DNA from: an uncultured virus (IMG/VR IMGVR_UViG_3300035396_000150) | Taxonomy: Duplodnaviria > Heunggongvirae > Uroviricota > Caudoviricetes > Crassvirales | Strand: one strand, 5' to 3' | IMG/VR virus record: IMGVR_UViG_3300035396_000150 | Span: 1 to 64,000 of that record | DNA: 64,000 nucleotides | In this document: piece after piece, positions 1 to 28,400 of the stretch | Layout: each line of letters begins with the position of its first letter | Position numbering within the stretch: position 1 is the stretch's first letter | Position numbers and translations under genes: made by a program | Notes under the pieces: generated by a model | Seen by the model: the letters and a program-made list of their open reading frames with translations, nothing else | Database searches by the model: none | What the model was told of the DNA's origin: nothing

Positions 1-3000
1 GCTATTCCTTTCATTACTTTAGGAACAAGTGCATTGGCTACATTAGACAATCTCATCATTTCTGATATTAAATCTGATGCCTTGTCTTTAAGTACTTGGT
101 TGTTTATTCTATCTTCATTTGCATACATCTCTAATATTACATTCATGGAAGCTAACTGTTGTAATGTGTTCATTACTCCTGTGGCTGTTTGGTCATTAGT
201 TAAGTCTGATTTAGCACTACTTAATAGACCTTCAACGCTTGTAAGTATCTCATTTAATACAGTATCTTCCTTTAGCTTCTCTTGGGCTTCCTGTAATTCT
301 TGAATACGGGCATTATACTTCTCTTGTTTATCAGGGTGCTTTGCTATTGTGTTCTTTAATGCTTTTATTCTATTGTCGTATATTTCATTTGCAGTGGTTG
401 TTATACCCTCTTTAAGGATTTGGTACTCTTCGTCTGATACTATATCCAAGTTTATTGTAGGTTCTACTGACTGGAAGTCTTCTTGTGTTTCTGATTGTAT
501 TCTTTGAAATGGTAATTCATCATCTTCAAATAGGTAATTCTGTGTACTGGTATTCTTTACTAGTGATTGCTTAACTTCGCTTCTAATTAAACTTCTTGGG
601 TATTTTTTAGCTACTTCCTTTAATGCTGCTAATTTAGTGTTAATTAATGCTTGCTTATTATATTCTTTTTTAGATTTAGTTTTTATTTTATTAAGAAAAT
701 TTTCAGCATCAGTTAGTTCATTTTTTAGGTATTCTTCAGCTTCTTTTTTTGTATCAAGTCCTATTGAAGGATAATTATTCTCTGATTGAATAAACCATTT
801 ATTAGCAGAAACATTTTCCTCATTTACAGAACTATCATTAAATAAAATTTTAGCGTTTTTAAGACTTTTTAAATTTTCTATTGCCTGAGATAAATATTCT
901 TCTTGTAAATCAATTATTCCTTCTTCTGTATTAACTAAATCACTTATTCTTCCTTTAACACTTTCAATATTCTCTTTTAAATTTTCATTAGTTTGAGTTG
1001 GTTGAATACCTACTTTATTTATTAAATTAGATAAATATTCATGTCTTTCTATTTCTTGTTGTGTAACATTTTTCCAATCATCTCCACTAACTTTTTTATG
1101 CAGTACTTCAAATTCACTTATAATGTCTTTGTTTATATTTTGTTTTTTACTAATCTCAGGTTCAATTAATTTACCAAACTTCTTCTCTAATATATTATTT
1201 AAACTACCTAATAACTTCTTAGTTTGATAAGGTATATCTTCGTCATATTCTAATCTAAAATTATTACCTGTTAATTGTATTCCTAATTCGTTATGCTGAT
1301 AAGCCAATTTATCTATTACATCTGCTAAATTAGGTACGATAGCATCTGAATTTATATGTGTCATTGAAGGTGCTTTAGTGTAACTTACACCCAATATTTC
1401 AGATTTTTTATCTTTGTTAATTTTTTCACTTGCATCCCAAACACTTCCACTAAATACATCTCTATTAGCAGCCCATTTAATATCATTCGATTGTGGAAAT
1501 ATTTTAAATTTAATTTTACCTCCCCCACCTTCTAAATGACCTATATTCTTATCTATAGGTTTAGTAAATGCCGATATAACAAATTCCCCTCCTACTTTTT
1601 TATGGTCTTCTAGATGTGTTAATAAGTTTTGAAACATTAGATTAACATCAAAACTACTATAAGCTCCTACAACACTATAAAACCCTTGACCTCTACTGTA
1701 AACTTCTTCAGGATTGTATACTATATTATTTATTCTTTTCCATTCATCTATAATCTCTTTAGATTGTTCATATTCTTTATTTTTTTCTATGAATTGATTA
1801 ATATTATTATAATTTAGTGTTAAATTATAATACCTGATTACACTAACATTAGTAGTAACATTTTCTTGGTTATTATAAAAATCATTTTCTAAATCTATTT
1901 TTGTATAACTTAAATACCATATACCATTTCTTCTTTCAGCATAAAAGGGAATGTCATCTATATCAGTACCACTAAAACTATTTACTTTTATTTCATTAAT
2001 ACTACTGATAGTGTTTTGGTTTATAATATTTAATTTAGCACCACTTAAATCAACATCTTTAACACTTTTAACTAATTTACTAATATGATTATTTGCTTCA
2101 CTATAAGTTTTAAACTTCATATTATCAGGTGTAGTATATTCTACTTCATATCCTGGTAATATAAGTTTACTATTACTGTATGCTAATAAATCACTTAAAT
2201 CTCCTAATGTCATATTATCAGGTAGTTTATCTATTTCTATTTCCTTTTGTTTGAGTAGGTCTTTAACAAAAGATTTAATTTCTTTTAATAGTCTTTTAAG
2301 TAACGATATTAACTTACCGTCTTTAATCACATCTAACTTTTCAGCAGTCATCATACCTAATAATTCTACAATGGCTTCTTCCTGTTGTTCTTCTAACGTA
2401 TATTTGGGAGAATATTTTTCTATATTTTCCTCTGCTTCTTTCAAAGTGTCAAAGTATTGGTGAGCAGTAGAACTTGTTTGTATTCTATACATACCATACT
2501 CCCAGTTGCCACTTTCAATGTTAGATTGCTTATATTGATAATCTCTCTTAATCCTATCTAATACTTCTTTACCTTTACCTGTTTCGAGTTCTTTAAGTAG
2601 GTTATTATATAATTCTTTATCTTTAATAGCTCTAATAATAGAATGTCCTAATATCTCATGTATAGGTGTATCTAATGTAGCATAAGCTAAATTTATATGA
2701 GCTGTGTTATTCTCTAATTTACCTTTATATTTTTTAGTTCTATCAGATTCGAATCTAATAGGAATTCCTATCCTATCAGACATTCTTGCAGCTAAATCTC
2801 TTATAGTCTTTTCTGAAGCTATATAATCTTCTGTGGATTGAGTTGTGTTGTTTTGATAGTATATATTGTTTTCTGTAGTACTGAATGTGCCTTGATTGAG
2901 GACTGATTTGATTTGGTTTGGTTCTTTAACTAATAGTTCCTCCTTTGTTATTAATCCGTCATTGTTATTTAAATTTAGTTTTTGCTTAGAAGTTATATCT

Positions 3001-4088
3001 CCTATAGCTATATCTATTTCTATTGGATCAACTAAAGATAAAAATACAGGATAAACAGTTGGATTGTAATTAGGAACTCCTTTATCTTTTAATTTTTTAT
3101 CTGCCATTTCAAAAAAATTAATTACATTATTTTTAATTTCATCTATTATCAGTTTCTTTTTTTCTTTTGTATCTATAAGCTCATTATTAAAGGATATAGA
3201 GGAAAGTTCAAATATATCTATACTACTATTATAAAAGTTATAGTCTTTGTTATATTTTCTAATTACATTAGATATTTCATATATTAATTTTTCATTGTTT
3301 AAAATATCATCTAATAGGGTATTGTCAGAAACTGTAAATTCTCTTGTTTTTATATTAAAGTATCCATTAGAACTTAAATTCATATAATATCCATAGGTAT
3401 CTGGATTACGCATTATTATATCTTCAAATATATAGTTATCTCCTACAAGATCCATATTATAGTATCCCTTTGAATACTCTTTAGAAAAAGAAAAGTAAAA
3501 TCCTTCTATTTCTTTTAGTGTATTCTTACCTATGTTTTCTTTTTTGAAGTAATTGAACTTAAATGGACTTCCATGATAAACTATTAAAGGCTCACCGTTC
3601 TCATCTACTACTTTACTATCCCCAAACCAATCCTTAAATTCTTTACTTCTTGTTTGTTTATATAGTTGTTCTGCTTGTTGCTTTGTAGTTACTTCTTCGA
3701 GCTGTTCTATATCTTTATATAGTTTAGATACGTTACCATTAGGTGCAAGTACTTCACCGTTTTCATTTCTACTTAATTCACTGTCTGTTTCTTTATTTCT
3801 ATTAGCTTCTATTTGTTCTTTACTGTTAGATGTATTTGTTTCTTGTGCTGTATTATTTAATATCAAATCCACAGCCTCCTTAATAGTCTCCGGCAAGTTT
3901 TCTCCCTTAGTTATATCCCACACATTATATGCTATATCCATAGCCTCCTTATCTACCCCTGTTCTTTCCTTTCTTAAATCAAGTGATTTAAACTCCTCTA
4001 CTTTAAGAGGAGTTCCATCAAACATAGTTACTATATTATTGAAAGCAACAACCACATTGGGGTCGCTTACTTGTGGACAAAATGCCAT
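1..4088 (-). CDS. Giant virion-ejected polyvalent protein (N-terminal >1360 aa, runs off the left edge) with ART-PolyVal-like ADP-ribosyltransferase and zincin metallopeptidase domains
   Basis: Absent from the ORF track, presumably because there is no stop in the window. Hand translation from ATG 4088 gives MAFCPQVSDPNVVVAFNNIVTMFDG. The same frame gives SKEFKDWFGDSKVVDENGEPLIVYHGS (~3650-3568), GFYFSFS, VYPVFLSL, KEELLVKEPNQIKSVLNQGTFS (~2945-2880), then TLDTPIHEILGHS (~2680-2641) and EEAIVELLG. The frame still reads sensibly at base 3. Spot-checked, not translated codon by codon. Confidence 0.85.
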   Translation of the reverse strand, partial: MAFCPQVSDPNVVVAFNNIVTMFDGTPLKVEEFKSLDLRKERTGVDKEAMDIAYNVWDITKGENLPETIKEAVDLILNNTAQETNTSNSKEQIEANRNKETDSELSRNENGEVLAPNGNVSKLYKDIEQLEEVTTKQQAEQLYKQTRSKEFKDWFGDSKVVDENGEPLIVYHGSPFKFNYFKKENIGKNTLKEIEGFYFSFSKEYSKGYYNMDLVGDNYIFEDIIMRNPDTYGYYMNLSSNGYFNIKTREFTVSDNTLLDDILNNEKLIYEISNVIRKYNKDYNFYNSSIDIFELSSISFNNELIDTKEKKKLIIDEIKNNVINFFEMADKKLKDKGVPNYNPTVYPVFLSLVDPIEIDIAIGDITSKQKLNLNNNDGLITKEELLVKEPNQIKSVLNQGTFSTTENNIYYQNNTTQSTEDYIASEKTIRDLAARMSDRIGIPIRFESDRTKKYKGKLENNTAHINLAYATLDTPIHEILGHSIIRAIKDKELYNNLLKELETGKGKEVLDRIKRDYQYKQSNIESGNWEYGMYRIQTSSTAHQYFDTLKEAEENIEKYSPKYTLEEQQEEAIVELLGMMTAEKLDVIKDGKLISLLKRLLKEIKSFVKDLLKQKEIEIDKLPDNMTLGDLSDLLAYSNSKLILPGYEVEYTTPDNMKFKTYSEANNHISKLVKSVKDVDLSGAKLNIINQNTISSINEIKVNSFSGTDIDDIPFYAERRNGIWYLSYTKIDLENDFYNNQENVTTNVSVIRYYNLTLNYNNINQFIEKNKEYEQSKEIIDEWKRINNIVYNPEEVYSRGQGFYSVVGAYSSFDVNLMFQNLLTHLEDHKKVGGEFVISAFTKPIDKNIGHLEGGGGKIKFKIFPQSNDIKWAANRDVFSGSVWDASEKINKDKKSEILGVSYTKAPSMTHINSDAIVPNLADVIDKLAYQHNELGIQLTGNNFRLEYDEDIPYQTKKLLGSLNNILEKKFGKLIEPEISKKQNINKDIISEFEVLHKKVSGDDWKNVTQQEIERHEYLSNLINKVGIQPTQTNENLKENIESVKGRISDLVNTEEGIIDLQEEYLSQAIENLKSLKNAKILFNDSSVNEENVSANKWFIQSENNYPSIGLDTKKEAEEYLKNELTDAENFLNKIKTKSKKEYNKQALINTKLAALKEVAKKYPRSLIRSEVKQSLVKNTSTQNYLFEDDELPFQRIQSETQEDFQSVEPTINLDIVSDEEYQILKEGITTTANEIYDNRIKALKNTIAKHPDKQEKYNARIQELQEAQEKLKEDTVLNEILTSVEGLLSSAKSDLTNDQTATGVMNTLQQLASMNVILEMYANEDRINNQVLKDKASDLISEMMRLSNVANALVPKVMKGI

Positions 4089-4103
4089 ATATTTATTATT
4101 TAA

Positions 4104-7100
4104 TTAACAACCGTCTCCTTTATCTTTTGATACATCAGCAGCTGCATTCTTAGCACTTAGTGTTATATCTTTATACTTATCTGTACTCTTTATATTTTTA
4201 TTAGATGCTAATACATATGCGTATTTTCTTGCTCTTGTTACTGCTACATATCTTAACTGCTTCCTCAATTCACTGTCTTTAAATTTATCTAAATCTCTAC
4301 TATCTATCATTATATTGTTATATGTACCTCCTTGAGATTTATGTATAGTATGTGCATAACCATAATCTATAGTCTTACTTATCTTAACTGCCTTGCTTCC
4401 CTTTGAATCTACTCCCATATCTGCTGATTTAGGTAATGCAAAAGTGTCTTTAAATTCAGACAATGCCTGCCATTTACCAGCCTGTGCCCTTTTATTTGGT
4501 TCTCTTATTGCAGCTAATCTTAGTTTCTCAAACTCTTCTGCTATTGCAGTATATACACTTTCATCATTTCTTTTACTTAATACGTTTATGTATTTAGGTG
4601 CTTCTTTCTTATTTAATATATTCTCAAGTTTTAAAGTATAATAAGTTACTTTTTTACCTGCGTGTTCAGTTTCTTTAAGCTCGCTAACTTCAGATACTTC
4701 ATAGTCTATTGAATTTACAATCTCTGATTTACCTGTTCTGTAATCTGTTTTGTAATTAGCATATCCCATTAGAAGCTCACCTTTGTTGTATTCGTTAACT
4801 GCAAGATTTCCATATATTGCTTCTCTTATCTTATTGTTTATATCTTCTATTTTTTCATTAGTTCCTGCTACCACTCTTACATATAGCTTGTTCTCTTTTG
4901 CTTCTTCTGATGTAAATAGTTCTTTAGCTTTCTCAAAGAAAGCGGCTTCAGAATTAGTAAATGTAACACCCTCTCCTTTTGAATTTTCTTTTGACATGTA
5001 ACTAAATTGGTCTTCTGTTTCTTTTGAATTTCTTATATCAGTGGCTTCAAATAATAATGGACTTATACCAGTTCTTTCTACTTTAGTTAATTCATAACTA
5101 TCTTCTACACTAAAAGCTTTAGATAATGTTGTTTGCTTTGGTGGCTTTAACTGTGCTGGGTCTCCCATAAATAGTACAGTAATACCATTCTCCTCTACGT
5201 AGCCTTCTATAAATTTAAATAGTTCGTCATTTATCATAGAACTTTCATCAATAACTAATATACTTCCATATCCAAGCTTACTTCCTTTAGTTTCAAATTT
5301 TAAATCTTTTGTAGAGAACGTCTCTAAATCCATCATAGGAGATAACCCAAATGCCTTATGTAATGTCATTACTGTACCTTTATCTATATTAGATGATAAT
5401 ACAGCATTGGCTCTGTGTGTAGGAGATGAATATACGACTGTCTTACCTGACTTTTCATATATATATTTACTTAATATATTTATAATAGATGTTTTACCTG
5501 TACCTGCATATCCTTTTAATACAAATTTCTTACCTTTAGAACTTATAAATGACTCCATCTTACCTAAAGCTTCTTCTTGTTGTGTATTTAATTTGAATGG
5601 GGTATCTATTACTACATCATCACTAAAAGTAAATGTGTTAGGTTTCAGCTTTTCTGGAATGTATATCTCCTTTTCTTCTTGTTTTACTTCAGGCTCTACT
5701 GCAGTAGTCTGCATTGACTTCTCTTTATCTAATTTAGCTTGATTTATTATCCTTTCTTTTTGTACTTTAGTAGAATTGTCTTGTGCAGTATATACTAATC
5801 CACCATTAGCTCCTGAATATACATTTCCTTTATCTGTTACTATATACTCTGTATTATTGTACATGGTTGTTTGATAACTTCCCAATACAGTAAGTTTGTC
5901 TATGTTAGGAGTACCACTGAATTTAGTACCATCTGTATTTATTATCTGTGCCTTGCCGTTATTGTTATTCCAGAATAGGTATCTTTTTCCATTGTACTCT
6001 ACAACACTTCCCTTCTTTAGTTCTTTATCTTCTTTATTGAATAGGCTTACTGGTTTTTCAGTTTTATTTACTTCTTGGGTTTGGTTTTGTTCTGTATCAA
6101 ATAAGGATTGTTGGATTGCTGGCTTTGCTATATTCTTAATACTTGAATAGGCATCTCTTAAAGACTGCATAAATAAACCATCTTTACCTGTCCACTTGTC
6201 TTGTTTAATTAATACTCCGTCTTTTATTAGATTGTGCGTACTGTTATTAAGAAATTCAATTCCACCCATTCTATCTATTCCTGTAGTCAAATCAGGATAC
6301 TGTAGTAATTTAGTTCTTAATACATCTGTCATAAGTTCTTTTACTTTGGCATTGAACTCTGTTTCAGTTAACTTCTCTTTTGGTTTATTTTCTTGGTAGG
6401 CTTCCTCACTTGAACTGTATCGTACTCCTTTATAATTAATAGGAAGTCTTGCAAAATTACTTAATTTACTACCTAAATCACTTTCGTAACTAGATATATT
6501 TATTCCATCTCTATTTACTTCTCTTTTTTCTGTTTCTACTTCCTTTAATTTTTCTTTACTTAGTAATTCCTTTAATTGCTCTCTCCAATTATCATTGAAC
6601 ATATTGATAGTGGGAATTCCCTTACGTCTTGCCATTTCTACTGCCTGTCCAGTACCTCCTTTTGGTCTTAAACTATTATTTGTTTCTTCTGCATAGAATA
6701 AAACAAAATCTACAGGCGTGTCTAAGTTCTCACCGAATACTTGATTTGTATTCCTCGCCATTAGCTTTGCTGCACCATCACTTAACGAACTTGGTTTAGG
6801 GTGTATTTCTTTCATTACTTGCATGGCTGTTTCAGGTATACGTGAATTTGGACTGTATAAGTTCTTTCTTGATGTACCTGCTGAAAAAGCCCTGTCTGCA
6901 CCTTCTTCGTCCATTCCTACTTTATTGCCATATAGTTTACTTAATCTATCAGATTCTGCTTTCTTTAAATCATATGCTTCTTTACCTAAATACTTTTCAG
7001 TTGATGTATATGACTTTCCTGTATTTAAAGTGTAACCTAAATCTTCAAGGTACTTGGCTGCTTTAGTCATTGCTTCCAATACTTCTGGTGTAGTTTCTCT

Positions 7101-10100
7101 ACTTCCTATACCTGCGTAAGTCATTGTTTTCTTATCTGATTTGCTTGGTAGTGTATTGAATATAGGTGTTTTACTGCTGTTTATAACTACATCTGCTTTA
7201 GTACTTTCTACTTTAGCTTTCAAGTCAGCCTTAGTCTGTATCACTAATTCAGTTTTCGGTGAATCATTTACTCTTTCTCTGGAAGTTTTATTTTCTGTTT
7301 TAATTTCATTTACTAACTCTTCAGAACTCTTATTACCTTCCTCACTTATTATACCTCTCAACTTATTTATTTCATCTTTAGTCATTCCCTCCTGAAGAAG
7401 TAAATAAGTAAATAGATTATTTGTCTTTATTAGTGCTTGTTCTATTGCCGATTTATCTGAATTAACTTTGTCATATGTTATGTTTTTTAGTTTATCAAAT
7501 ACATTCTTGTCAGTCATAAGTGCAATCATAAACTCGTCTATACTATCTAAGGCATTATTAAGTTCTGCATCATACGTATCAGTAAGCATTCTGTCTGTGC
7601 TTCCTTTAGCATTACCTGCAAGTTTCTCATTTAATAGATGTTCATATATCCTAGTTATTACCTCAACTCTCTTCATTACTCCTTCATCTTTAACTATCTT
7701 AGTATCACTATCAGATACACTTAATAAGTTATTAAATATAGTATGTAATAACTCATGCTGTAATGTAGTCTCAAATTCATCTCTTACACCTTTATAATTT
7801 AACATACTTGTGTTAAATCTATTAGGGTTTATCTTTATCTTCTTGCTATTTATATTGACTCCTTTTGTATATATTGTATTATCTATACTTAAAGACAAAT
7901 CTTCAGGTATATACTTCTCTAATTTAGTTATTACTGTAGATATGAACTTGTCCTTAAAGCTACTTAATGACTCAAGTGCTTCTTTCTTACCTATCTTATT
8001 TACATCTTGATACAGGGATGTTATTGACTTATGTAATCTTACTTCTTTTCCGTTTAATACTATAGAACCAAAGTCCTCACTAATTACTGCTGTATCTTCA
8101 TTAGCGTTAAGTACTGATTTTGTAAGAGTTTCTCCTTTTACGAATTCTGTCTTGTTTCCTTTTCCCAATAGAGGCATTATTCTATAAGTTGACTTACTTG
8201 CTGTTTCCAAATCAGCTATCTTCCATAATATATAAGGCTCTGTTACACCTACTTTAAGTATATTATCTAAATCTTTATAGTCTTCAATCTCTTTTACATA
8301 TTCCTTATCTACTTCAATAAGTCCGTCTACATTTCTTATAGGATTTCCTGTTGATTTTATTAATGATGGCTTATGTCTAACCATCTGTAGGAATGCCTGC
8401 TCTGCTACTTGTCTGTTATCTAAGTCTTGATTTATATCTTCATAGAATCTATTTATACCTATAGACTCTAATACGAATGGAGATATTAGCTGATTAAATG
8501 AATTAAAGTTAAATCTATCACCCATAGCAAAGTTATACTTAAGCAAGTCTTTAGCTAATAGGTTCTCTACTAAGTCATCACTGTAGAACATAGATAGTAA
8601 TGAGTTTGCATTCAACTGTACTTCTTCTTCTGTCTTAGTGTCTTGTTTATATTCTATATAGACTGCACCTGTCTTCCTGTCTATTTTACCTTCTAAGTTA
8701 GATATAAACTTGTAGGCTGGATGTGCTCTACTTATACTCTTAAGGAAAGCATTAACTCTATTATATAATGTAGATTCACCGAATAAGAACTTACTTCTTA
8801 TTGAATCTAATGAATCCCCCTCAAATATAGGATTAGTTCTATCTGCTTTTAAATAATCTAATGTAGCATTAGACAAATAACTTATATCTTCTGCATTTAA
8901 ATCTGTTCCTTTATACTCTGAAGCTAGTTGTATTATGTCTGTATATAATGGTTTCTTATAGTGGAATAGAGCTTCTTTATCTCCTACCTTGTTATTGAAT
9001 AAATCTTTAGTATATTTAATTCCTAAGCTAATAGTTTCTCCTAACTCATTAGTACCGTCTTCATCTTCAAATAGCTGTTTAGTAGATTCAAATATCTTAT
9101 CTTTTAGTACCTTATTATATTTAAGTAGCTTGGATTCAAGTTCATTGAAGTCGCTTCCAACTCCTTTACTATCTATATTAAGTACACTTCCTATATTAAC
9201 TAAGGACTGACCTACTCTATTGGCTTGTACTAAGCTCTCAAGTATACTAAGTGCTATTCCTTTATCCATTACAGGATTCTTATAACTATTTATTATCTCT
9301 TCTGCAGTATATACTTTAGGTTCAAGTGTAAGCTTATTTTCTCTTATTAACTTCTTTACTGCACCATTAAATGTATAATTTAGTCCAGAGAATTGACTAT
9401 CTGACTGCTCTAATAAGAATTGTAACTCTTTGACTATTGGGTGATTGAACATAGCCATTATCATCTCTCCTGATATAGAATCTTTCTCATCTGTTATCAA
9501 AGCATTCAATCCATTAAAAGCCTTAGACAACTCTAATGTCCAACCAGTAGCATCTAATAGCTTATTATTGGCATTATCTACTGCTTCATTCTGTATCATT
9601 GTAGTGAAGTTGAAGTTTGTTCTATCTTCATTCTTATGATTCTTATATGTGCCTAATCCAACTCCTGTGTATGTCTTTCCATTGAATTTAATAGCTTCAT
9701 TTAACTTCATGCCCTTATCTTCTAAATAAGCCATTACAACACTATGTACACTTTGTATAGCAATACCTTTCTTACCGCTCTGATTTGAATTGTAGTCATC
9801 TAAGGTATTTACTATATCCCAATGGTTATTTATTAGATTAATTTCTTTACTGTTTAATTTCTTTTCTACATAATCTTCAACATCTTTAAAGTCTAATGAC
9901 CTTAATGACTTCTTGGCTACTTCCGGGTGTGTGAATAGAGACTCTAATACTTCCATGTAGTTGTTTTGCAGCCATGCGAGTTTATTTGTCTTCTCTCTTA
10001 TCTTAGTTAACTTGCCATTACTATCTACTTCGTGATTAAATAAGTAGCTATATAAATGGTCGATGTCAAAATCAGAACCCATTTGAGCTGTTATCTCGTC

Positions 10101-13100
10101 AGGCAATATAACCATATCTTCATAGCCTTGCGGAAGAAATCCTACTATCTCCAATGCTATTGTACTACTATGGGATTGATTAGGGATACGAGCACTTATG
10201 GTATTTAGTAGAGCTTTATCTATCTTATTCATATCTATCTTATTTCCTACCATATAGTCTTTCATATCTATATCTTTAAAGGGCCAAGGGATTATTATCT
10301 GTGCTCTCTTTACTGTATTACCCTCTATCTCTGTATATGTAAGAGATTCATTGAAACTATCTGTAAATATTATATTAGATTTATTATAGTCTCCTAAATG
10401 TCTAAATCCCAAGTTACTCATTTGTGCATGGGACTTACCTTGCATTCTTGACTTAACTACTCTATTAGTAATTAAAGATACCAAATTAGAAGCTATTGTA
10501 TTATATACAGGAGTTAGATATAATGGCACCACCAAGTTACCATCTTCTGCAATCCTAATCATATCTGCTTCATTAGCTTTACCTGATGATATAAGTTCTT
10601 CTTTTATAAAAGCTACTATTTTCTTTAGGTCTGTAAACTTACCATTAGTTATACCAAACTCTTTCTCAAATTCGTTCTTAGCTTCTTTAAATATCTCTTT
10701 TCTTATATTCTCTTTTATCTTCTTTAATTCTTTTGCTGATATTGGTTTACCTCCTTTATATATAAATAGCTTCCTGTCATCAAGTAGAAGTCCTTGAAAT
10801 GCTAACTTGTTTAATTGGCTTATGTTAGTAATAGTATCATCTTCATTATCTAATTCCTCTTGTTGTAGACCTAATCCATCTCTATCTAATATCATACCAC
10901 CTCTCTCGAACATAGCTTCTACTTTAACTTCGTTTATCCTTGCTGTTCTATCTTGTGCTCTATTAGAATCTGTAGTAGGTACATCAAATATAGCAAATGG
11001 TTCAATACCTCTTGCTTTTGCTGCAGATTTGGTGATTACTCTTACGTTGATTCTGTTACCGTCAGCTATATGCTTCTTCTCTCTCTTTTCTATATACTTT
11101 TGCAATACCTCTAAATCAAACCCAGCCGCTAACTCCTTAGTTGCTGCATATGAACTTGATTTCATGTAGTTTACTTGATTAGATGCTGTGAATTGGTCAT
11201 ACTCTGTAGCAAAGAATAGAGGTTTTCTTTTTTGTAATTCTACTCCAAGCTCATGTAAGTTTGGCATCTTACCTGCATTTAAATTATCTATTATCTTCTT
11301 AAACGTGTCTGTAGATATACCTTCCTTACTATATAGTACAGTCATATCTTCTCTTAGAGATGTTATCTCTTCAGCATCTGCTACATTTACTTTACCATAT
11401 TGGTCTACATCAAGCAGCTCTTTATTTCTTACTTGATATCTTCTTGTTTCCACATCATCTATTACAAAGTACTCTACTTTACTATAATCGTCTGTAGTTC
11501 CATCTTCATTCTTAAATATGTACCTTCCTTTAATTGCAGTACCGGATATACCTCCCATTCTCTTAAAGTATGTATCTATTGAATTTCTAATCCAACTTCC
11601 TTTCTTCTCTTTATAGAACATTGCAGGGTCTCCGCCAAACGTCATAGTGAAGTTATGATTCAATAATATTTGATTGATATGCATCTCTGTAGCTAAGGCT
11701 CTTATTGGTTTATCCATATATCCTTTACCTCTTTTAGTTTCTTCTGCAGACAATGTTATATTACCGGACTTCTTTTTGTATTCATCTGCTATTCTTGATT
11801 CTAAATAGTTATATATACCATATTTCTTAAACTCATCTACTAGTTTATTTATAGATAATTCGGCACTTCTATTTACTATGGCTGCTATTGCTTTCTTATT
11901 ATCATTTATTGATATATCTATCTTACCGTCAGTAAATACGAATGTGTTCTCTTTATTCATTTCTGTATAGAAGAAGAACTTCATTGCTCCATCTTTATAA
12001 GTCTTACTAATCTTCTCAAATCTAAGTTTATCTTCTACACTCAATTCATTATTGTTGTACTTATTAGTTAAGTCTACCATCATATTATATCTCTCTATCT
12101 CTGCATAGGCTGACTGCATTAACATATTTAAGATATTCATTGGCTCCTCATCTTTATTTCCTTTAGTGTATGCCTTAACTAAATTAAGCTTTCCGTCTTT
12201 ATCATATACATCTTTGAAGTCAGCTACTTCAATCCTTTCAAAACTAAGTAATGGATACTTAGATTTATCAGACATTACTTCTGGAGACATATATGTTAAA
12301 TCATTACCGCTATTAAAGAAGGAGGTAATCATTTGCATATATTGCTCTTCTCTTGTCATCTTAGGTCGGGTCTTAGGTTTATCTGTTTCTCCTCCATTCT
12401 CTTTATTCATGGAATCTATATAGAAGTAATTGACTTCTTTTAGAGAGAATAGATTAATCTTATCATTGTATTTCTTTCTTTCTTCTTTAGTTGCTTCTGG
12501 TAGAAATGCAGAGTATCTTGTAAAATCCCCTTTTCTCATATCTTCTATAAAACCCTTATCTTCATTAGTTAGTTTATCTGTTACTAAGCTGAATCTTGAA
12601 GGTATACTATTAGATGAAATCATATTACCTTCATTGTTTCTGTAATTGCTTAATACATATTTATCTGAGTTCTCTGCTTTTAGATTAGCTAATACCTTTA
12701 CAAGTTTATTATTACTTAATGGATTAAATGCACTTGATAGCTCTTCAAATTCACCTGCATCTCTTTCAAATCCTGTATGGAATATATTACGTATAATACC
12801 GTTCTTATTACTTGTAAACATCTCATGTATACTTACATTTCCTTTAACTCCTGCAAGTTTAAAGTACTTAGTAGGGTTATTAAATAAAGATTCAAGTTCA
12901 GGTCTTGTTACATCTATACCTAATCCATTAAGAGTACTTAATAGACCATACTCTATTACAGGTTTTCTATCTACAGTTATGGTTCTATCATCTACAATGG
13001 CTTGTATAAGTTGTGGTCTATTTGTAGTGTTTTTAATAAGTTCTTTTGCTTTCTTTTCCCATGTGGATAGGCTTGATGATTTTATATGATTTAATAACTT

Positions 13101-14459
13101 GTAATCTATACCTTTATCAGTTATTAACTTCAAACTGCCTTTCATATTACCTAACTCAGAACTGTATATACCTTCAGATAACATCTTTTGATTTAATCTC
13201 CATTCATTATTTATTCTATTCTCTAAGGCATTTCTGTTAGTGAGAAACGGATAAGCAGTTTTCTTTATACCGTCATTGGCTCCTTCTTGTGATTCTTTTC
13301 TTCCTGTATTATGTAATATAGTAATTAAGTTTACGTCTTGGGTCGTTAATACTGCCTTCAAGTTGTTCTTTAATCCTTCTATATCTTTTTGTTTATTAAG
13401 CTCTTCTACTATATTACTTCCTATAGTACCCTTAGTTTTTATCTCTTCAAGCATCTCCTCTGCACTTGCATTAGGGTTACTTACAGAGTTTATCATATAC
13501 TGCATAACAAACTCCTTATCTAACTTCTTAACTAACCCGAACTCATTTCTTTCTTTTATACTAAGGTCATTTAATTTATCTATGTTGGATAGTACCTTTT
13601 TTAAGGCTGCATTAGCAGTAGTTTTCCAATCTATAGAGAATGAAGCAGTATCATTCCACATAGCTTTTAATCTCTCATCTGCTGCTAATTCTATCTTCTT
13701 ATTCTTCAGATTTATCTTTATAGTCTTATCATTTATAAGTCTTCTTTCTACAAGTGTCCTTACTTTCTCTAAATTAGATTCGTTTGTAGCAGCCTCAAAC
13801 ACATTTACTAAATAATTAAATCTATCTAACTCACTATTTACAAGTTTTTGGTCTTTTGTATCGTCTCCTATAAGAGATGCTATTTTATCTCTTGTTGCTT
13901 TATATCTTTCTAATATGGTCTTTAAGTCCTCTGTAAAGGAATCCAACTGCTGTATAGGTGATACATCTTTATCTAATTTAAAGCCTTGTACATAACTATT
14001 AACTAACTCTATTATTTGATTAGCACTTAATCCCTTTACACTGTATACTGAATCCTCATTTAGTGCCTTTATAAATTCAGGATTGAATGTATCTGTCTTT
14101 ATCTTTAATAGTGATGATATCTGATTAAAGGTAGGTTCCCCTGTCTTATTCTCGAAGTCATATCCAATACTACTTAAAAAAGCATTAGCTTGTTTAGAGC
14201 CCGAATAGACATGAATGGCTAATACTTCATTAGCCATTCTCTTATTTCCATAATAACTAACTAAGTCTTTATATAACTTAGACTCTATCTTATATTCTTT
14301 ATCTAAATACTTAAACGGCTCTTTTGCGTCCTTTATTCTATCTCCGTATTTATTATTATAGTTTACAGCCATCTTTACCAAAATATTAGATTCGTTCTCT
14401 GTGGCATTTGGTCTTAGTGATTTATATACTTCTATTAATTCAACTGGTTCACAATTCAT
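4104..14459 (-). CDS. Giant virion-packaged DNA-dependent RNA polymerase (crAss-like), fused to C-terminal zincin, SLOG-like, NADAR-like and SF1B helicase domains
   Basis: 3451 aa. RIPNQSHSS followed by catalytic GSDFDIDHLY (10059-10073); LQHELLH zincin motif (7743-7757); YAGIGSRETT and GGTGQAV (SLOG); LSNFA...YSSSEEAYQ (NADAR-like); GYAGTGKT, VIDESSM, GDPAQL, YAHTIHKSQGGTY and YVAVTRAR (SF1B helicase). Confidence 0.92.
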   Translation of the reverse strand: MNCEPVELIEVYKSLRPNATENESNILVKMAVNYNNKYGDRIKDAKEPFKYLDKEYKIESKLYKDLVSYYGNKRMANEVLAIHVYSGSKQANAFLSSIGYDFENKTGEPTFNQISSLLKIKTDTFNPEFIKALNEDSVYSVKGLSANQIIELVNSYVQGFKLDKDVSPIQQLDSFTEDLKTILERYKATRDKIASLIGDDTKDQKLVNSELDRFNYLVNVFEAATNESNLEKVRTLVERRLINDKTIKINLKNKKIELAADERLKAMWNDTASFSIDWKTTANAALKKVLSNIDKLNDLSIKERNEFGLVKKLDKEFVMQYMINSVSNPNASAEEMLEEIKTKGTIGSNIVEELNKQKDIEGLKNNLKAVLTTQDVNLITILHNTGRKESQEGANDGIKKTAYPFLTNRNALENRINNEWRLNQKMLSEGIYSSELGNMKGSLKLITDKGIDYKLLNHIKSSSLSTWEKKAKELIKNTTNRPQLIQAIVDDRTITVDRKPVIEYGLLSTLNGLGIDVTRPELESLFNNPTKYFKLAGVKGNVSIHEMFTSNKNGIIRNIFHTGFERDAGEFEELSSAFNPLSNNKLVKVLANLKAENSDKYVLSNYRNNEGNMISSNSIPSRFSLVTDKLTNEDKGFIEDMRKGDFTRYSAFLPEATKEERKKYNDKINLFSLKEVNYFYIDSMNKENGGETDKPKTRPKMTREEQYMQMITSFFNSGNDLTYMSPEVMSDKSKYPLLSFERIEVADFKDVYDKDGKLNLVKAYTKGNKDEEPMNILNMLMQSAYAEIERYNMMVDLTNKYNNNELSVEDKLRFEKISKTYKDGAMKFFFYTEMNKENTFVFTDGKIDISINDNKKAIAAIVNRSAELSINKLVDEFKKYGIYNYLESRIADEYKKKSGNITLSAEETKRGKGYMDKPIRALATEMHINQILLNHNFTMTFGGDPAMFYKEKKGSWIRNSIDTYFKRMGGISGTAIKGRYIFKNEDGTTDDYSKVEYFVIDDVETRRYQVRNKELLDVDQYGKVNVADAEEITSLREDMTVLYSKEGISTDTFKKIIDNLNAGKMPNLHELGVELQKRKPLFFATEYDQFTASNQVNYMKSSSYAATKELAAGFDLEVLQKYIEKREKKHIADGNRINVRVITKSAAKARGIEPFAIFDVPTTDSNRAQDRTARINEVKVEAMFERGGMILDRDGLGLQQEELDNEDDTITNISQLNKLAFQGLLLDDRKLFIYKGGKPISAKELKKIKENIRKEIFKEAKNEFEKEFGITNGKFTDLKKIVAFIKEELISSGKANEADMIRIAEDGNLVVPLYLTPVYNTIASNLVSLITNRVVKSRMQGKSHAQMSNLGFRHLGDYNKSNIIFTDSFNESLTYTEIEGNTVKRAQIIIPWPFKDIDMKDYMVGNKIDMNKIDKALLNTISARIPNQSHSSTIALEIVGFLPQGYEDMVILPDEITAQMGSDFDIDHLYSYLFNHEVDSNGKLTKIREKTNKLAWLQNNYMEVLESLFTHPEVAKKSLRSLDFKDVEDYVEKKLNSKEINLINNHWDIVNTLDDYNSNQSGKKGIAIQSVHSVVMAYLEDKGMKLNEAIKFNGKTYTGVGLGTYKNHKNEDRTNFNFTTMIQNEAVDNANNKLLDATGWTLELSKAFNGLNALITDEKDSISGEMIMAMFNHPIVKELQFLLEQSDSQFSGLNYTFNGAVKKLIRENKLTLEPKVYTAEEIINSYKNPVMDKGIALSILESLVQANRVGQSLVNIGSVLNIDSKGVGSDFNELESKLLKYNKVLKDKIFESTKQLFEDEDGTNELGETISLGIKYTKDLFNNKVGDKEALFHYKKPLYTDIIQLASEYKGTDLNAEDISYLSNATLDYLKADRTNPIFEGDSLDSIRSKFLFGESTLYNRVNAFLKSISRAHPAYKFISNLEGKIDRKTGAVYIEYKQDTKTEEEVQLNANSLLSMFYSDDLVENLLAKDLLKYNFAMGDRFNFNSFNQLISPFVLESIGINRFYEDINQDLDNRQVAEQAFLQMVRHKPSLIKSTGNPIRNVDGLIEVDKEYVKEIEDYKDLDNILKVGVTEPYILWKIADLETASKSTYRIMPLLGKGNKTEFVKGETLTKSVLNANEDTAVISEDFGSIVLNGKEVRLHKSITSLYQDVNKIGKKEALESLSSFKDKFISTVITKLEKYIPEDLSLSIDNTIYTKGVNINSKKIKINPNRFNTSMLNYKGVRDEFETTLQHELLHTIFNNLLSVSDSDTKIVKDEGVMKRVEVITRIYEHLLNEKLAGNAKGSTDRMLTDTYDAELNNALDSIDEFMIALMTDKNVFDKLKNITYDKVNSDKSAIEQALIKTNNLFTYLLLQEGMTKDEINKLRGIISEEGNKSSEELVNEIKTENKTSRERVNDSPKTELVIQTKADLKAKVESTKADVVINSSKTPIFNTLPSKSDKKTMTYAGIGSRETTPEVLEAMTKAAKYLEDLGYTLNTGKSYTSTEKYLGKEAYDLKKAESDRLSKLYGNKVGMDEEGADRAFSAGTSRKNLYSPNSRIPETAMQVMKEIHPKPSSLSDGAAKLMARNTNQVFGENLDTPVDFVLFYAEETNNSLRPKGGTGQAVEMARRKGIPTINMFNDNWREQLKELLSKEKLKEVETEKREVNRDGINISSYESDLGSKLSNFARLPINYKGVRYSSSEEAYQENKPKEKLTETEFNAKVKELMTDVLRTKLLQYPDLTTGIDRMGGIEFLNNSTHNLIKDGVLIKQDKWTGKDGLFMQSLRDAYSSIKNIAKPAIQQSLFDTEQNQTQEVNKTEKPVSLFNKEDKELKKGSVVEYNGKRYLFWNNNNGKAQIINTDGTKFSGTPNIDKLTVLGSYQTTMYNNTEYIVTDKGNVYSGANGGLVYTAQDNSTKVQKERIINQAKLDKEKSMQTTAVEPEVKQEEKEIYIPEKLKPNTFTFSDDVVIDTPFKLNTQQEEALGKMESFISSKGKKFVLKGYAGTGKTSIINILSKYIYEKSGKTVVYSSPTHRANAVLSSNIDKGTVMTLHKAFGLSPMMDLETFSTKDLKFETKGSKLGYGSILVIDESSMINDELFKFIEGYVEENGITVLFMGDPAQLKPPKQTTLSKAFSVEDSYELTKVERTGISPLLFEATDIRNSKETEDQFSYMSKENSKGEGVTFTNSEAAFFEKAKELFTSEEAKENKLYVRVVAGTNEKIEDINNKIREAIYGNLAVNEYNKGELLMGYANYKTDYRTGKSEIVNSIDYEVSEVSELKETEHAGKKVTYYTLKLENILNKKEAPKYINVLSKRNDESVYTAIAEEFEKLRLAAIREPNKRAQAGKWQALSEFKDTFALPKSADMGVDSKGSKAVKISKTIDYGYAHTIHKSQGGTYNNIMIDSRDLDKFKDSELRKQLRYVAVTRARKYAYVLASNKNIKSTDKYKDITLSAKNAAADVSKDKGDGC

Positions 14460-14478
14460 ATTAATTTATTTAGTTGAT

Positions 14479-17400
14479 TTATTTTGTTTTGCATGGTACT
14501 GTTGTTACTGCTTCTACTTCAGGTACAATACCTTCAAATACTTTATAATCGAATAGCTCAGAACCTTCTATTTCAAATAGCTCTGCATTATTTAATTTTA
14601 GTCCTTGTTTAGTTGATTCTACTTCTTGCTTTACTTCTTCTTTATTTGTTTCTTCTGTTGGTGGTTTAGGCTTATCTTTCATTACATCTACACTAAAAGC
14701 CACTACAGGATTATTATAATATATGAATTCCGTATTTCCTATATTGTTATTTAAGTTATCTTCTGTATTATGTATTACTGTCTTTACTTTAGCATCTATT
14801 ACAAATCTATCTCCTATAAAGTCTATATAATTTACAAGCTCTCCATTCCCATTAGGTATTTGTATGTTCTTTTCTATAGCTTTAGTACTTGCATTAAATC
14901 TTAAATTACCTATAGCATTTATAACATCTTTATTCTTTAGACTTGCTTCTGTAATCTCTACTGCTGGGCTGGCTTGATTTATGTTTATATAATACTTAGA
15001 CTTAGTTCCTTCCTTAACTCTATACATCTTACTATATGCATTCTTAGAAGCATCTATATTAACTCCTGCGATATCACTATGATTTATATCTACATATGTA
15101 ATAGCTTCTATTAAGTCATGTATATTGAACTCATCTTTTATAAGTACTCCTTCTTTATATAATGGATTACTTGTTGCATTTAATTTAGATAGGAATCCTA
15201 TAAAGATTTCTATCAAATCAGTTCCTATCTTCTTATTCTTATTTCCTTTCTTTACATTACCATTAAGACTCATCTGCAATACGAACTCTACTTGTAGACT
15301 TCCATCAGCAGAAGGAACTAATGCTATTGCCTTACCAAACCCAAATGTCTTAAGATACTCTCTCAACTCATCAGAGAACTCACTTGTTTTTATATTCCTC
15401 TTCTGTCCATCTACAGAAGTAACCAATGAAGTTCCTATAGATACTGCTATTATAGGATTACCTAATCCCTCTTTAGAGTCTTTAAGTCTTTCATTAAGTG
15501 TTCCGTAGTTATCTAATTCATTCTCGCTTCCTGACTTCTCTGCATTTAATATACCTACAGACTTGTAGTATACTTTACCTGTATCGGCTCCTTTTAGTAT
15601 ATTTGTACGAGCACTTCTTAGTTCATCTCTCTTTATTTCTATACTACTATCTTTTTCTACTTGGAAGTAATCATCAGTTACTCTACCTATACTATGTAAG
15701 TAACCTGCCTCAATTCCTTTAGATATTACTTTAATAGGTATATAATCATTTAATAGTTGCTCATTTCCATTGAACTTCTTCTTAAATTCTCCCCAAGTCA
15801 TCTTAGTTTCTTTCTCACCTTCATAATTTGTTATAAGCAAATCGTCATTATCTTCTACTATGAACTCTACTACATCTCCTCTATTTAGATATTTAGATGA
15901 TTCTGTAGGTATGGATAACACACCTGTACCCTCCTGTAATTTAGTTGTTTTATTATATCTTACACTTGTATTAGCAATAGATAATACACTTGTCTTTAAT
16001 CTATTCGTCTCATCTGTATATTGATGTCTATTATTGTAGTCTTCTTCATATTCAGGTGCTTTATTTAGTACTGTTTTTATAGTACCTGAATTGACTATAT
16101 CAGGATCTACACCTATAATCTCATTATCATTTATAAGTATAGAAAAGTTAAATAGATTAGCTACTAATTCATCTACAGGCTTACCTTCAACTTCTTTTGT
16201 TCCTACTACTTCCATATTATCTTGTAATAGTCTGAAGTAATTATTTAAGTAACCTACTACAGCATCTAAGCTACTTCTACGTGCGTTCTTTCTCATAGTA
16301 GGAGATATTACATCGAAGCTTCTCTTCATTACTGCAAATAGTTTGCGATGCTCTTCTATTAAATCTCTTGCTATTGGATTACCGTTCTCGTCTAATACAT
16401 ATGTCTTTAATTTATAATCCTCTATTAGCTTAGTGAAGTGGTCTATTAGTTTATTACTGTGCTCTTTAAGTCTGCTACGTAAATCAGTCATTTTAGTTTC
16501 TTCTTCTGTAGTAGCTTCTCCATTATCTTTCTTGTCTTGTATTACCTTAAATAAATCACGTGCTTCTTCGTGTATATTAGATTCTTCAAAGTTCAAGTCT
16601 TCAAGGTCTGCTAACTCATTATTCATTCTACCCTTAGCATACTGTACATTCTTCATGGCTTCTGTAGCATCTATAGGGAATAATGGAAGTGTCTTTAATA
16701 TATTATCTACTATACCTGTGAATTTTTCAGGCTGTCCTTTCTTAAAGGCATCTGTAAATTCATTTATATATTTTATAGTATCCTTATGCTCATCTTGATT
16801 ATCTTGTATCCATTCTGTTACTTTATCTAATGAAGCTAATAAATCAGCTTCACCTTCAACTACGGACCATTTAATAATCTGTTCCTTTAAATCTATAACT
16901 GCTTGCACACCTGCAGATGCCTTATTCTTCAGTGCCTCTTCTGCAGCCTTTGCTTTAGCTTCCTTAGCTAACCTTTCTTTCTCTGCTTTTTCATTTACTG
17001 TATTTACTGTCTTTCCGGTTGTTTCTTTTGACTTTAAGTTTGCTTCTCTGTCCACATTATCCTTTGCTTTCTGTACTGCTTTCTTAAATGACTCTACTGC
17101 TTCAGTCTTATTTTTTATACCATTCTTAACAAATTCTGTTTGTCCTTCTTCAGTTAATAACTTATCATGTCTATTTACTTGATATAGATAGGATTCTATA
17201 TTGTTTTTAAAGTTAATTAAGTGTCCGTTCAATTTATCTGATACTTTATCTTCTAGTGTTTTAAACCCCTCTTCACTTCTCTCATATGCTACTTCTTCTT
17301 CATATTGATTTCTTATTTTGTCTTTTTCACTATTTACAACAGCTTTAGATTTATCTTTACTATATTCTATAGTATCTTTATTCTCCTTTCTTAATTTATC

Positions 17401-25404: not shown

Positions 25405-28400
25405 AATGTATATGGTTCAAAATGTGTCATTATATCTAATATCTTAAATCTTCCTCCTATCATACTATTATCATATAAAACCCGTATCTTACAATAATTT
25501 CCATTAAGCAACTCATTTATTGCTTTACTGTATCCTTCATCTGTATAAGTTAAGCCTGTCTTATTTCTTGGTACCGCTGTCTTAAATTGATTCAAATCTT
25601 TACTTATATTATATAGGTAAGCCGGATACACAGTATCTGTTTTAACTCCATTGGTGTCTGCTATTACCCTACTACTTCCTGCATAGTTTAAAAAGGACTG
25701 ATTATCAGTTGCTTCATATTCTCCTGTACTTGTATTAAGTTCTGTTTCAGTCATTGCTGTCGAATTCTTTACAAACAAATCAATGTACTCCGATTGCTGT
25801 GTATTAGTAATTCCCCTTATTTCAGTTATTGTCCTATTCTCTATACCGATATAATTTGACTTACCTTCCAGCTTTCTTTCACCTGTAGTTAGTTCATTTA
25901 TCAATTCTATGGCTTCATAATAAGCATTAGATGATTGTGGATTCAATACATATTCAAACATTAATGGATATGTAATTCCATAGTACTCACCATACTCTCC
26001 TAAATTATGTTCATATAATAAATTAGCGTTATTAGATGTCATAAACCCCTTAGGTGTCTTTAAATACAAGTCTGGTATAAAAGTCTCGAACCCTATAAAC
26101 AAATTAAGAGGTTCATTAAATACCATAGTGTAGTTGTTCTTTAAGTCTATAAATTTGTGCATATACACCTTATCGGCATTTATAAACTCATCTCCGTACA
26201 GATACTCAAATTCTAAATTAGTTTCATAAATACCTGTTAATCTATAAGTACCTTCCTTTCCACTGCTTGTATTTAATTTATATATCAAGCCTGTTTCCAT
26301 TATTACGTTAGTTGTATCTCCTGTTAGATAGGTAAATTCAAATCCCACACTTACTGTAAATGTATTGTCATCATACTTAACTCCTATTGAATCATTTACT
26401 ATGGACAACATAACACAAGTCCTTGAATTATCATATACCCCTAAGAATCTCGTATTCTTATTTAAAGTTTGCTTAAAGTAACTACTCACTCCTTTTATAT
26501 CTGATATTGACTGTATGCCTTCTCCAAATCTATATAACTTCTTTCTATTCAAATCAATCCAATATATAAAAGATACACTAACTACTGCTTCATTACACTT
26601 CTGTATTCCTACATTAGTAGATAGATACTGATGCGAATGTATAATATCTCCCTTACCAAGCACTACAGGTAGTCCACTATCTGTTGTTGTTTGTACTGTA
26701 GGACTTATACTAAGTGCTACTACTGCATTATCTTGAAATACAAATACGTTATCATTTAATCTAACCATGTAATTAAGTGAGCCATAATTAGCATCTAATG
26801 TACTATAGTTATTAGCTTTGAAATCTAACCAACTATCATATAACTCTCCTGATATCTTCTTTTCACTGTATCTTATCATAGTATCTGCTACATAATTCTT
26901 TAATCTGTCGGCTGGTAACTGTATTGCTAATTTAGTTTTATTTATACTACTATATACTGAATTATATAAGTATGTAGGAGATATATCTACTATAGCATTA
27001 TGTTGTGTTTCTCTGCCATCACCTAATTTTAATACCCTGCTATCAGTTAAGGTAAGTCCTTCCTCTTGTACTTGTATAGCATCTATATTGGAGTTTCCTA
27101 TTGAATAAAAATCATCATGTCTTAACTTCAAATTAATTGAACTTTCTACTATAGTATCTATTATATGTGCAGCAGAGTATATTTTAAGTGATACTGGGTT
27201 ATTAGGGTCTATTACACCTCCCGGATATTCAGCCTCTAATTCTGGTATATGTATCCAAGTTGCATGAAAGTACTTATATCTATTAACAAACGTATCACCA
27301 TATCTACAACCTACTGTACCATTTCCTGTATATACTATACTTGCAGGAATATAAACACTATTTAATCTTTTATTATAAGAACCAGCCCCGTATGGAATTA
27401 TATACCTTCTTATATTTACAATTAGAGTTCTCTTTCCTATTGCAAGTATTGAAGTATCAAGTGCTATTATAGAAGCAGTACTGTTGTAATATATAACAGG
27501 AGCACCAAGAGTGTCTAATCCTGTTCCTATAGGAACTATAGTATTTCCATCTACATACACAGTATCCTTTTGTTGTGCTATTGCAAAGTCCTTTATCTTA
27601 TTTCTAAATGGAAATAATGCACTGCCACTTACTTTTAAATCAGAGTAATAGAAACAAGCACTTCCAGAATCAAATGCATCTATATCATGCCCGTATTCTA
27701 AATAATCATAACTAACATCATTTAACTGTTCTATATAAGTATCTTTTAAATTCAAATCCTTAAAGAAACTTATTTCAGGACTATGTAATCTGAATAGTTC
27801 GGAAGACTCAAATGTAGGCGATTGAGGTTCATACCAACCATGTTGAAAATGAGTACCTTTATCTTCAAGACTACTTAATACACCTTGAGTTAATATTGTT
27901 CTATCTTTCACAGTTCTTTCTACTCTAACTATCTGATAGTTATTTACTTCACCCGGAAGATTACTTACATTAAAATAAGGGACACATAAATCGTACTCTC
28001 TTTTATATGTAAATGATGGATATATATCACGATACTTAGGCATTCTTATATCTCCTATATACTTTACAGGACTTTGCCTTCCATACTTATCAAATAATAC
28101 AATACCAAAACTATATATCTCATCATACATAAATCCCTTAATAACGCCTAACTTAAAATCGTTATTATTGTAATCATAAGAGGTATCAAATGAAACACTT
28201 ACATTTACTCCTTGAGCACCTAATGTAGTTCCATCAGCTTGATACTTATATGCATTAGTTCCTATAGTATCTAAAGATATATCATTGAACTTGTTATGTA
28301 TATCTGAATCAATAGGTATTAGTTCAGCAGTGTCTTTCCAATTAACTAAAGCTCCATTTAAAGACTCCACTAATGTAGTACCATCAGCTTTATATATATC

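Follow-up and report, generated by a model that had tools for sequence, protein, structure and literature searches.

Facing terminal cysteines in the giant cargo proteins of crass-like phages: a possible head-to-tail disulfide chain

Giant cargo proteins of the window and their cysteines

The stretch analysed here, hereafter the window, comprises the 64,000 nucleotides (nt) at positions 1 to 64,000 of the IMG/VR record IMGVR_UViG_3300035396_000150, an uncultured virus of the Crassvirales whose assembly is a single incomplete contig of 72,958 nt. Its minus strand carries a crassvirus virion module with, in this order, a muzzle protein, cargo protein 1, a protein of 781 amino acids (aa) and three giant proteins that we name P1, P2 and P3, the second of which is, judged by its sequence (see below), a crAss-type virion RNA polymerase (vRNAP). 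P3 runs off the contig end of the window and the rest of it was read on an identical IMG/VR contig of 95,999 nt (L002, 10001-17110), where it is the last gene of the operon. The three giant genes and the codons of all their cysteines (Cys) are the following.

14479..20379, minus strand: P1, first of the giant cargo proteins; 1966 aa with a single Cys (residue 1963) and no match to any family
14491..14493, minus strand: Cys1963 codon of P1 (end ...VPCKTK, then stop), four from the C-terminus; faces Cys3 of P2
4104..14459, minus strand: P2, crAss-type vRNAP, 3451 aa, to which DprA/SLOG-like and Dda-like helicase modules are fused; just two Cys, at residue 3 and at the very end
14451..14453, minus strand: Cys3 codon of P2 (start MNC...)
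4107..4109, minus strand: Cys3451 codon, last residue of P2 (end ...GDGC, then stop); faces Cys4 of P3
3..4088, minus strand: P3, third giant protein, 2369 aa, of which 1362 aa lie inside the window; its sole Cys is residue 4
4077..4079, minus strand: Cys4 codon of P3 (start MAFC...)

Together, P1, P2 and P3 contain four Cys in 7786 residues (Cys1963 of P1, Cys3 and Cys3451 of P2, and Cys4 of P3), which make one facing pair at each junction, at positions -4 (counted from the C-terminus) and 3 between P1 and P2, and at -1 and 4 between P2 and P3. The outer ends of the chain, namely the N-terminus of P1 and the C-terminus of P3, have none. The other open reading frames (ORFs) of the virion module in the window contain 0.51% Cys, from which about 48 would be expected in the 9399 residues of cargo, and four are observed (Poisson P ~3e-16); the probability that four random positions land one in each of the four facing 4-residue ends is ~2e-12. 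The pattern is not due to chance. A sequence-only reading of the window had already placed the Cys of the 1966 aa protein, of the RNA polymerase and of the start of the third protein, with every coordinate right, and had seen no Cys in the 781 and 832 aa cargo proteins, which indeed have 0 each; the complete translation of the third protein extends this picture, as no Cys appears in it after Cys4. That reading had also listed fused helicase, SLOG and NADAR modules as free of Cys. The first two are present and Cys-free; a Pfam search of P2 and P3 did not find NADAR.

P2 ends in a single TAA, and P3 begins in the same frame 15 nt further on (window 4089-4109); the gap between P1 and P2 measures 19 nt and is out of frame. 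The in-frame arrangement is probably fortuitous. Read-through of the P2 stop was considered and judged unsupported, the P1/P2 gap being out of frame with several stops and the gaps varying widely across loci. Native chemical ligation or intein-like splicing was likewise rejected, as the Cys is at position 3-6 and not 1, and no intein sequence is present.

Conservation across related loci

Viral contigs were searched with a profile of the vRNAP core, and the best 80 of 516 confirmed relatives were taken by core similarity only. ORFs were called blindly with the first ATG as start, except that nine loci of one lineage which use TAG as a sense codon were read with TAG as Q. Clustering at 70% identity reduced the 80 loci to 69 representatives (11 redundant loci were dropped). 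We defined a junction as the boundary between consecutive ORFs of at least 1000 aa, and a terminal Cys as one within 10 aa of the end. Both facing Cys are present at 65 of the 68 junctions found in the 69 representative loci. At the remaining three the N-terminal Cys is present and the only Cys of the upstream protein is found at -12, -15 or -24, while a C-terminal Cys alone, or neither Cys, was never seen (0/68 each). The N-terminal Cys is at position 3 (35 cases), 4 (18), 5 (12) or 6 (3), and the C-terminal one mostly at -1 to -3. Most junctions are tight, with gaps from -8 to +35 nt.

The outer ends of the chains behave as in the window. None of 53 outer N-termini has a Cys, and only three of 55 outer C-termini do, all three followed by an ORF that starts with Cys and falls outside the size or gap filter. 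Internal Cys amount to 73 in 367,931 residues of giant proteins (0.020%), against 1.02% in a control set of 76 other complete ORFs of the same loci, of which nine carry a Cys among their first 10 aa and nine among their last 10. It is evident that the terminal Cys, on whose conservation in homologues the sequence-only reading had made its proposal depend, are kept, both at 65/68 junctions in 69 loci and in eight named crass-like phages (see below). The finding is real, strongly conserved and easily tested.

A protein search with residues 1-2400 of P2 gave four non-self matches (P0004, P0005, P0006 and P0007). P0004, with 3676 aa and 25% identity, has Cys only at residues 3 and 3674; P0006 (2004 aa) likewise has just two, at 3 and 2003, and P0005 (4992 aa) lacks Cys; P0007 is discussed below with the exceptions.

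Some observations concern single loci. L074 has an ORF of 345 aa (8283-9320) with no Cys other than residue 3 and its final residue, by its look a miniature chain link, and the contig ends soon after. The vRNAP genes of L078, L080, L083-L088 and L092 contain 100-130 in-frame TAG per frame under translation table 11 and no TAA or TGA before the real end, and those of cr6_1 (L100) and cr7_1 (L101) likewise contain many in-frame stops under table 11. These in-frame stops reflect stop-codon recoding in late genes, and the terminal Cys pair is kept in them.

Named crass-like phages

The facing ends in eight named phages are as follows, with the upstream protein first.

phi14:2, first junction: gp67, 1797 aa, sole Cys the last residue; gp66, 2180 aa, only Cys3 and Cys2179
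phi14:2, second junction: gp66 (Cys2179); gp65, 1421 aa, only Cys3
crAss001, first junction: gp47, sole Cys at -3; gp50, Cys5, Cys at -9 and one internal
crAss001, second junction: gp50 (Cys at -9); gp49, only Cys5
FpV4: gp32, 4287 aa, sole Cys at -2; gp33, start MAC
cr118_1: gp14, Cys at -4; gp15, sole Cys3
LMMB: Cys at -2; start MSC
cr6_1: Cys at -4; start MIIC
cr7_1: Cys at -1; start MFC
crAss002: gp32, sole Cys at -2; gp33, Cys35 from the annotated start, and MSC from Met33

The gp47 gene of crAss001 is on the strand opposite to gp50 and gp49, yet its C-terminal Cys is kept. In crAss002 (L099, NC_055828, 16086-16200) the annotated start of gp33 reads MVLDYSI..., and starting at Met33 gives MSCTPS..., the family-wide N-terminal form; from this likeness, the true start of gp33 is probably 96 nt downstream of the annotated one.

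The gp67-gp66-gp65 set of phi14:2 (gp66 is PDB 6VR4) and the gp47-gp50-gp49 set of crAss001 are similar to the window in having a homologous vRNAP core, the DFDxD motif, a position after the muzzle and cargo genes, and the terminal Cys. Unlike in these phages, P2 of the window has extra SLOG-like and helicase modules before its terminal Cys, and P3 an insert of ~1200 aa bearing an ART-PolyVal domain. Packing of vRNAP-module proteins in the virion is known, by mass spectrometry, only for phi14:2 and crAss001; gp45, gp46, gp47, gp49 and gp50 are reported as present in crAss001 virions, and the same work argues that the cargo must partly unfold (Bayfield 2023, PMC10172136).

Fusion, fission and N-terminal modules

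Among the loci, the module is found as three genes, with P1 and P2 fused, with P2 and P3 fused, or with all of them fused, and the Cys follow the breaks. When the ORF bearing DFDxD starts at most 2408 aa upstream of the motif, i.e., when a break is present, it has an N-terminal Cys in 21/21 cases; when it starts at least 2539 aa upstream and P1 is included, in 0/36. The all-fused proteins contain no Cys whatsoever (L022, 4799 aa; L041, 5220; L053, 5005; L058, 4933; L060, 4730; L077, 5331), and the same is true of a 3'-open fused protein of more than 6681 aa in L052. Projection by BLAST of the split junctions onto fused homologues is colinear, and the colinear pairs in the rows listed have 0 Cys within 30 aa on either side of the projected break. 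The reverse is also found. L028, L032, L033 and L040 are split just before the catalytic core and the break carries its own Cys pair, and L063 has an additional split with an additional Cys pair. The exchange of Cys pairs with peptide bonds is, like the sequence rule itself and its conservation, a direct observation from these loci.

The gap of ~490 nt at the break before the catalytic core holds a gene of 157 aa (L028, 9244-9717; also in L032, L033 and L040). This gene, which accompanies a lineage-specific vRNAP break, is ferritin-like (in L028 PF00210, E 3e-12, plus a rubrerythrin match), and internal Cys are present in it.

Since the pattern is kept with genes on opposite strands in crAss001 and follows fusions and new breaks, it belongs to the proteins and not to the nucleotides of the junction, and as far as sequences can tell, each end is partnered with the one that it faces. 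Lys immediately precedes the C-terminal Cys in 26/68, and K is the commonest neighbour on that side, with K or the stop mostly on the other. Pro follows the N-terminal Cys in 14/68, and A or S mostly precedes it; His is not enriched. The 90 aa that come next after the N-terminal Cys group into families shared by the N-termini of P2 and P3, with 61 cross-type phmmer matches; one cluster of 34 comprises 24 P3 and 10 P2 starts (with motifs like CPNxNSxEWKxLV and NGxxSxLF), and another of 11 has the form MxCxYxFxGxxY. No match to a Pfam family was found for these N-terminal modules. Their recurrence suggests that they may be portable coupling modules. A cassette of an N-terminal Cys module plus ART-PolyVal is placed at the start of P2 in L024 (6011-6460) and at the start of P3 in the window (2892-4088), indicating that modules move between members of the chain.

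Comparison with known systems

The closest published parallel comes from the cyanopodophage A4 (Anabaena phage A-4L), in which cryo-EM of the packaged pre-ejectosome, inside the capsid, shows the C-terminal helix of gp27 inserted into gp26 and stabilised there by a head-to-tail Cys1715-Cys5 disulfide (PNAS 2025, PMC12002296). In the A-4L genome the sole Cys of gp27 (1717 aa) is Cys1715 and that of gp26 (1114 aa) is Cys5, i.e., positions -3 and 5. As in the crass-like phages, these are ejected proteins of consecutive genes with the sole Cys near the upstream C-terminus and near the downstream N-terminus. Neither blastp nor phmmer gave a match between A4 gp26, gp27 or gp28 and the giant crass proteins; with the terminal-Cys signature shared and homology absent, the crass chain would work like A4 without being a member of its family. 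There are also differences. In A4 there is a single link, and neither partner is an RNA polymerase; the A4 proteins are folded and arranged as a five-fold ring about the portal axis, where a thread is proposed for the crass proteins. The A4 paper, in the text available, draws no general rule and makes no tie to gene fusion or fission (PMC12002296).

The other precedent is the ejection operon of the Schitoviridae (N4 gp50; DEV gp71, gp72 and gp73), where Cys is suppressed to 0.00075% in gp71 homologues versus 0.865% in the proteomes, and where N4 gp50 has none, the reason offered being passage through the periplasm and envelope (PMC11445570). Both groups have giant virion-packed RNA polymerases and co-ejected proteins that are nearly devoid of Cys, and the suppression is found here in the same way, with 4 Cys in 9399 aa of the window against 0.51%, and 0.020% in the relatives against 1.02%. 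Nevertheless, the polymerases of N4-like and crass phages are of different kinds. The vRNAP of N4-like phages is one chain of ~3500 aa with 0 Cys, and being a single chain it needs no tether, whereas the crass phages add conserved terminal pairs at every break. The N4 vRNAP has been described as 'beads on a string' within one chain, in a 2026 paper that leaves its relation to the three crAss proteins open (PMC13434306).

For crAss001 virions, inter-subunit disulfides were described in the tail and gp57, and the available text of that work mentions disulfides only there and does not mention cysteine in the cargo (Bayfield 2023, PMC10172136). The preprint by Drobysheva et al. reports that the three proteins are fused in some phages, and its available text has 0 matches for cysteine, disulfide or Cys. 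A literature search that covered Drobysheva et al. as the preprint found no description of terminal Cys pairs in crass-like phages. The sequence-only reading had considered the arrangement undescribed; this stands for the crass chain, which was not found in print, and does not stand for Cys suppression (Schitoviridae/N4) or for one A4 disulfide, both already published. What is new here is the conserved terminal pairs of the crass-like phages; the A4 bond and Cys suppression in N4-like phages were known.

A disulfide chain as the likely explanation

One likely explanation, and the one that we favour on comparative grounds without considering it settled, is that each facing pair of Cys forms a disulfide in the virion, so that P1, the vRNAP and P3 make one unbranched chain, topologically like a fused polyprotein. 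P1, P2 and P3 would be split pieces of the single giant polyprotein seen in other crass-like phages. An upstream Cys a few residues from the C-terminus and a downstream Cys at position 3-6 would form an intermolecular disulfide in the virion, giving a pseudo-polypeptide of 7786 residues in the order P1-S-S-P2-S-S-P3, in which disulfide tethers stand in for the peptide bonds of the polyprotein. Such a tether could secure packaging at 1:1:1 and sequential exit as one thread, and the reductants of the cytoplasm would cut the disulfides after entry. Internal Cys would be selected against because a non-terminal bond would make a loop or a branch unable to pass a narrow channel, and because free thiols could be caught by oxidants or periplasmic oxidoreductases.

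A wider and distinctly more tentative proposal is that, in crass-like phages at large and independently in A4-like cyanophages, end disulfides may be redox-cleavable substitutes for peptide bonds. Ejected proteins would then leave as one thread that host reductants cut, evolution could swap peptide bond and Cys pair freely, and Cys-first N-terminal modules could couple any break.

How crassviruses pack ~0.7-0.9 MDa of RNA-polymerase proteins and pass them in order through a narrow tail is an open question, raised by both the crAss001 atlas (PMC10172136) and the 2026 N4 paper (PMC13434306). A conserved end-to-end tether would be a concrete answer, and one that is cheap to test. If true, it would account for the coexistence of fused and split modules in different lineages, would connect the trio of crAss proteins with the 'beads on a string' vRNAP that N4 has as a single chain, and would supply a sequence rule to place gene starts (such as that of crAss002 gp33) and to predict linked ejection proteins in other phages.

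Several points weigh against the disulfide chain. Virions assemble in the reducing cytoplasm, and gut phages live without oxygen, which makes the timing of bond formation a difficulty. The cargo is not resolved in the crAss001 maps (PMC10172136). The preprint of Drobysheva et al. suggests that the fused forms get cleaved, in which case continuity would not be needed after entry. There are also exceptions in the sequences. Among the matches of P2, P0007 (5334 aa) has three internal Cys and no terminal ones. The vRNAP proteins of L047 and L076 have their nearest Cys at -168 and -130, although in L076 a later ORF nonetheless starts MQC. In L054 the nearest Cys of a 5419 aa protein is at -398, followed by a Cys-free ORF of 584 aa and then by an ORF starting MQHC. 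crAss002 fits only with the start of gp33 at Met33 instead of the annotated one.

Finally, the gut lineages are richer in internal Cys, with 12-13 each in the 5443 aa and 1945 aa proteins of cr7_1, 2 and 7-8 in LMMB (8 in 4070 aa), and 8 and 6 in cr6_1, which weakens the argument of a strict purge. In aquatic phages internal Cys are rare in the giant proteins (0 in phi14:2, 0-1 in FpV4). The contrast of aquatic and human-gut phages, a small sample, would fit stronger selection against stray thiols in oxic habitats.

Other explanations for the paired cysteines

The same chain topology could be obtained with another chemistry if a metal ion (Zn, Cu or Fe) joined the facing Cys. A soft metal could be bound by the two thiolates where chain ends meet, the reducing cytoplasm at assembly would favour free thiolates, and the sequence-only reading had allowed for this option. 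A junction, however, supplies just two Cys, without enrichment of His, Asp or a further Cys next to them, and cryo-EM shows the A4 pair, whose signature is the same, to be a disulfide (PMC12002296). We consider a metal bridge improbable.

No better placed is the idea that the Cys are free in the virion and become oxidised only after ejection, in the host envelope, where they would lock the assembly of an ejectosome or channel. The periplasm is an oxidising compartment and the proposed cause of Cys suppression in ejected proteins (PMC11445570), and cargo proteins are thought to build a tunnel across the envelope (PMC10172136). The vRNAP, though, must reach the cytoplasm to transcribe, the A4 bond exists already in the packaged pre-ejectosome (PMC12002296), and mis-oxidation would threaten free thiols at the ends no less than the internal ones, which are counter-selected.

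Slightly less probable still, a terminal Cys might serve another partner or role, such as attachment to portal, capsid or DNA, a packaging signal, acylation or homodimerisation. Lone terminal Cys without an obvious facing partner do occur in FpV4 gp30 (Cys5; L013, 8120-9916), in the 861 aa protein of LMMB (Cys at -2; L098, 4964-7549) and in crAss002 gp30 (Cys at -8; L099, 5391-7064). What speaks for partnership is that C- and N-terminal Cys co-occur at 65/68 junctions with no C-terminal Cys alone (0/68), that a fusion removes both and a new break brings both, and that outer chain ends lack them (0/53, and effectively 0/55).

Chance, faulty annotation or a signal in the nucleotides where coupled genes meet (TGY codons close to the stop or start), for which the tightness of most junctions might speak, is refuted by the comparative sequence data, as the pattern is kept at about 25% protein identity, across gaps of ~490 nt holding another gene and with partner genes on opposite strands, with starts called blindly as first ATG, control ORFs at 12% and P ~2e-12 for the window alone.

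Identity of P2 and P3 and neighbouring genes

The remaining features of the module in the window, including the domains of P2 and P3, are listed here.

25401..29567, minus strand: muzzle protein, PF25731 crAss_MUZ, E 1e-137; start of the cargo block; with 7 internal Cys, a contrast to the cargo
22906..25404, minus strand: cargo protein 1, 832 aa, PF25725 crAss_CARG1; 0 Cys
20379..22724, minus strand: 781 aa protein in cargo position; no family match; 0 Cys
10059..10079, minus strand: GSDFDID catalytic motif (DFDxD) of P2, aa 1461-1467
6549..7130, minus strand: DprA/SLOG-like module of P2, aa 2444-2637, phrog_768; Cys-free
4197..5768, minus strand: Dda/PIF1-like superfamily 1 (SF1) helicase module of P2, aa 2898-3421, PF13604 and others; Cys-free
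2892..3605, minus strand: aa 162-399 of P3, an ART-PolyVal domain (PF18760; 41.7 bits, cutoff 31.2)

The assignment of P2 as a crAss-type virion RNA polymerase is based on its sequence and on its neighbours. GSDFDIDHLY, at aa 1461-1470, contains the DFDxD motif, and D193, D195 and D197 are invariant in an alignment (A1) of the P2 core with those of phi14:2, crAss001, cr118_1 and FpV4. By tblastn the core matches 141-144 phage records, including crAss001 gp50, phi14:2 g066 and crAss002, and crAss_MUZ and crAss_CARG1 are directly upstream of the giant genes on the same strand. As a single sequence the vRNAP core had no match in the PDB; the A1 profile does match 6VR4, although phi14:2 itself is among the A1 sequences.

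P3 is a very large multidomain protein with PF18760 above the gathering score, as in polyvalent proteins. Over its C-terminal ~1100 aa it shows homology with the third protein at other loci, as well as with the C-terminal region of polyproteins that are fully fused, and its first 69 aa are shared with P3 of L017. P3 was also considered as a zincin protease and rejected, the HExxH motif being absent and HEILGH having the wrong spacing. For P1, phmmer gave no homologue among the fetched loci, nor were homologues found for its last 350 aa or for the first 350 aa of P2, and therefore no alignment of the P1/P2 junction could be built.

The closest matches among the homologues of the helicase module (P0008-P0061) often end in Cys, e.g., ...KQRKKECE. 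Among the 120 helicase homologues listed, the median is 2 Cys, seven have none and about 25 end in Cys; as they are poor in Cys anyway, loss of Cys on joining a cargo protein can barely be judged by this comparison. Several of those ending in Cys look like table-11 fragments of recoded crAss vRNAP-helicase fusions, which would make this fusion widespread.

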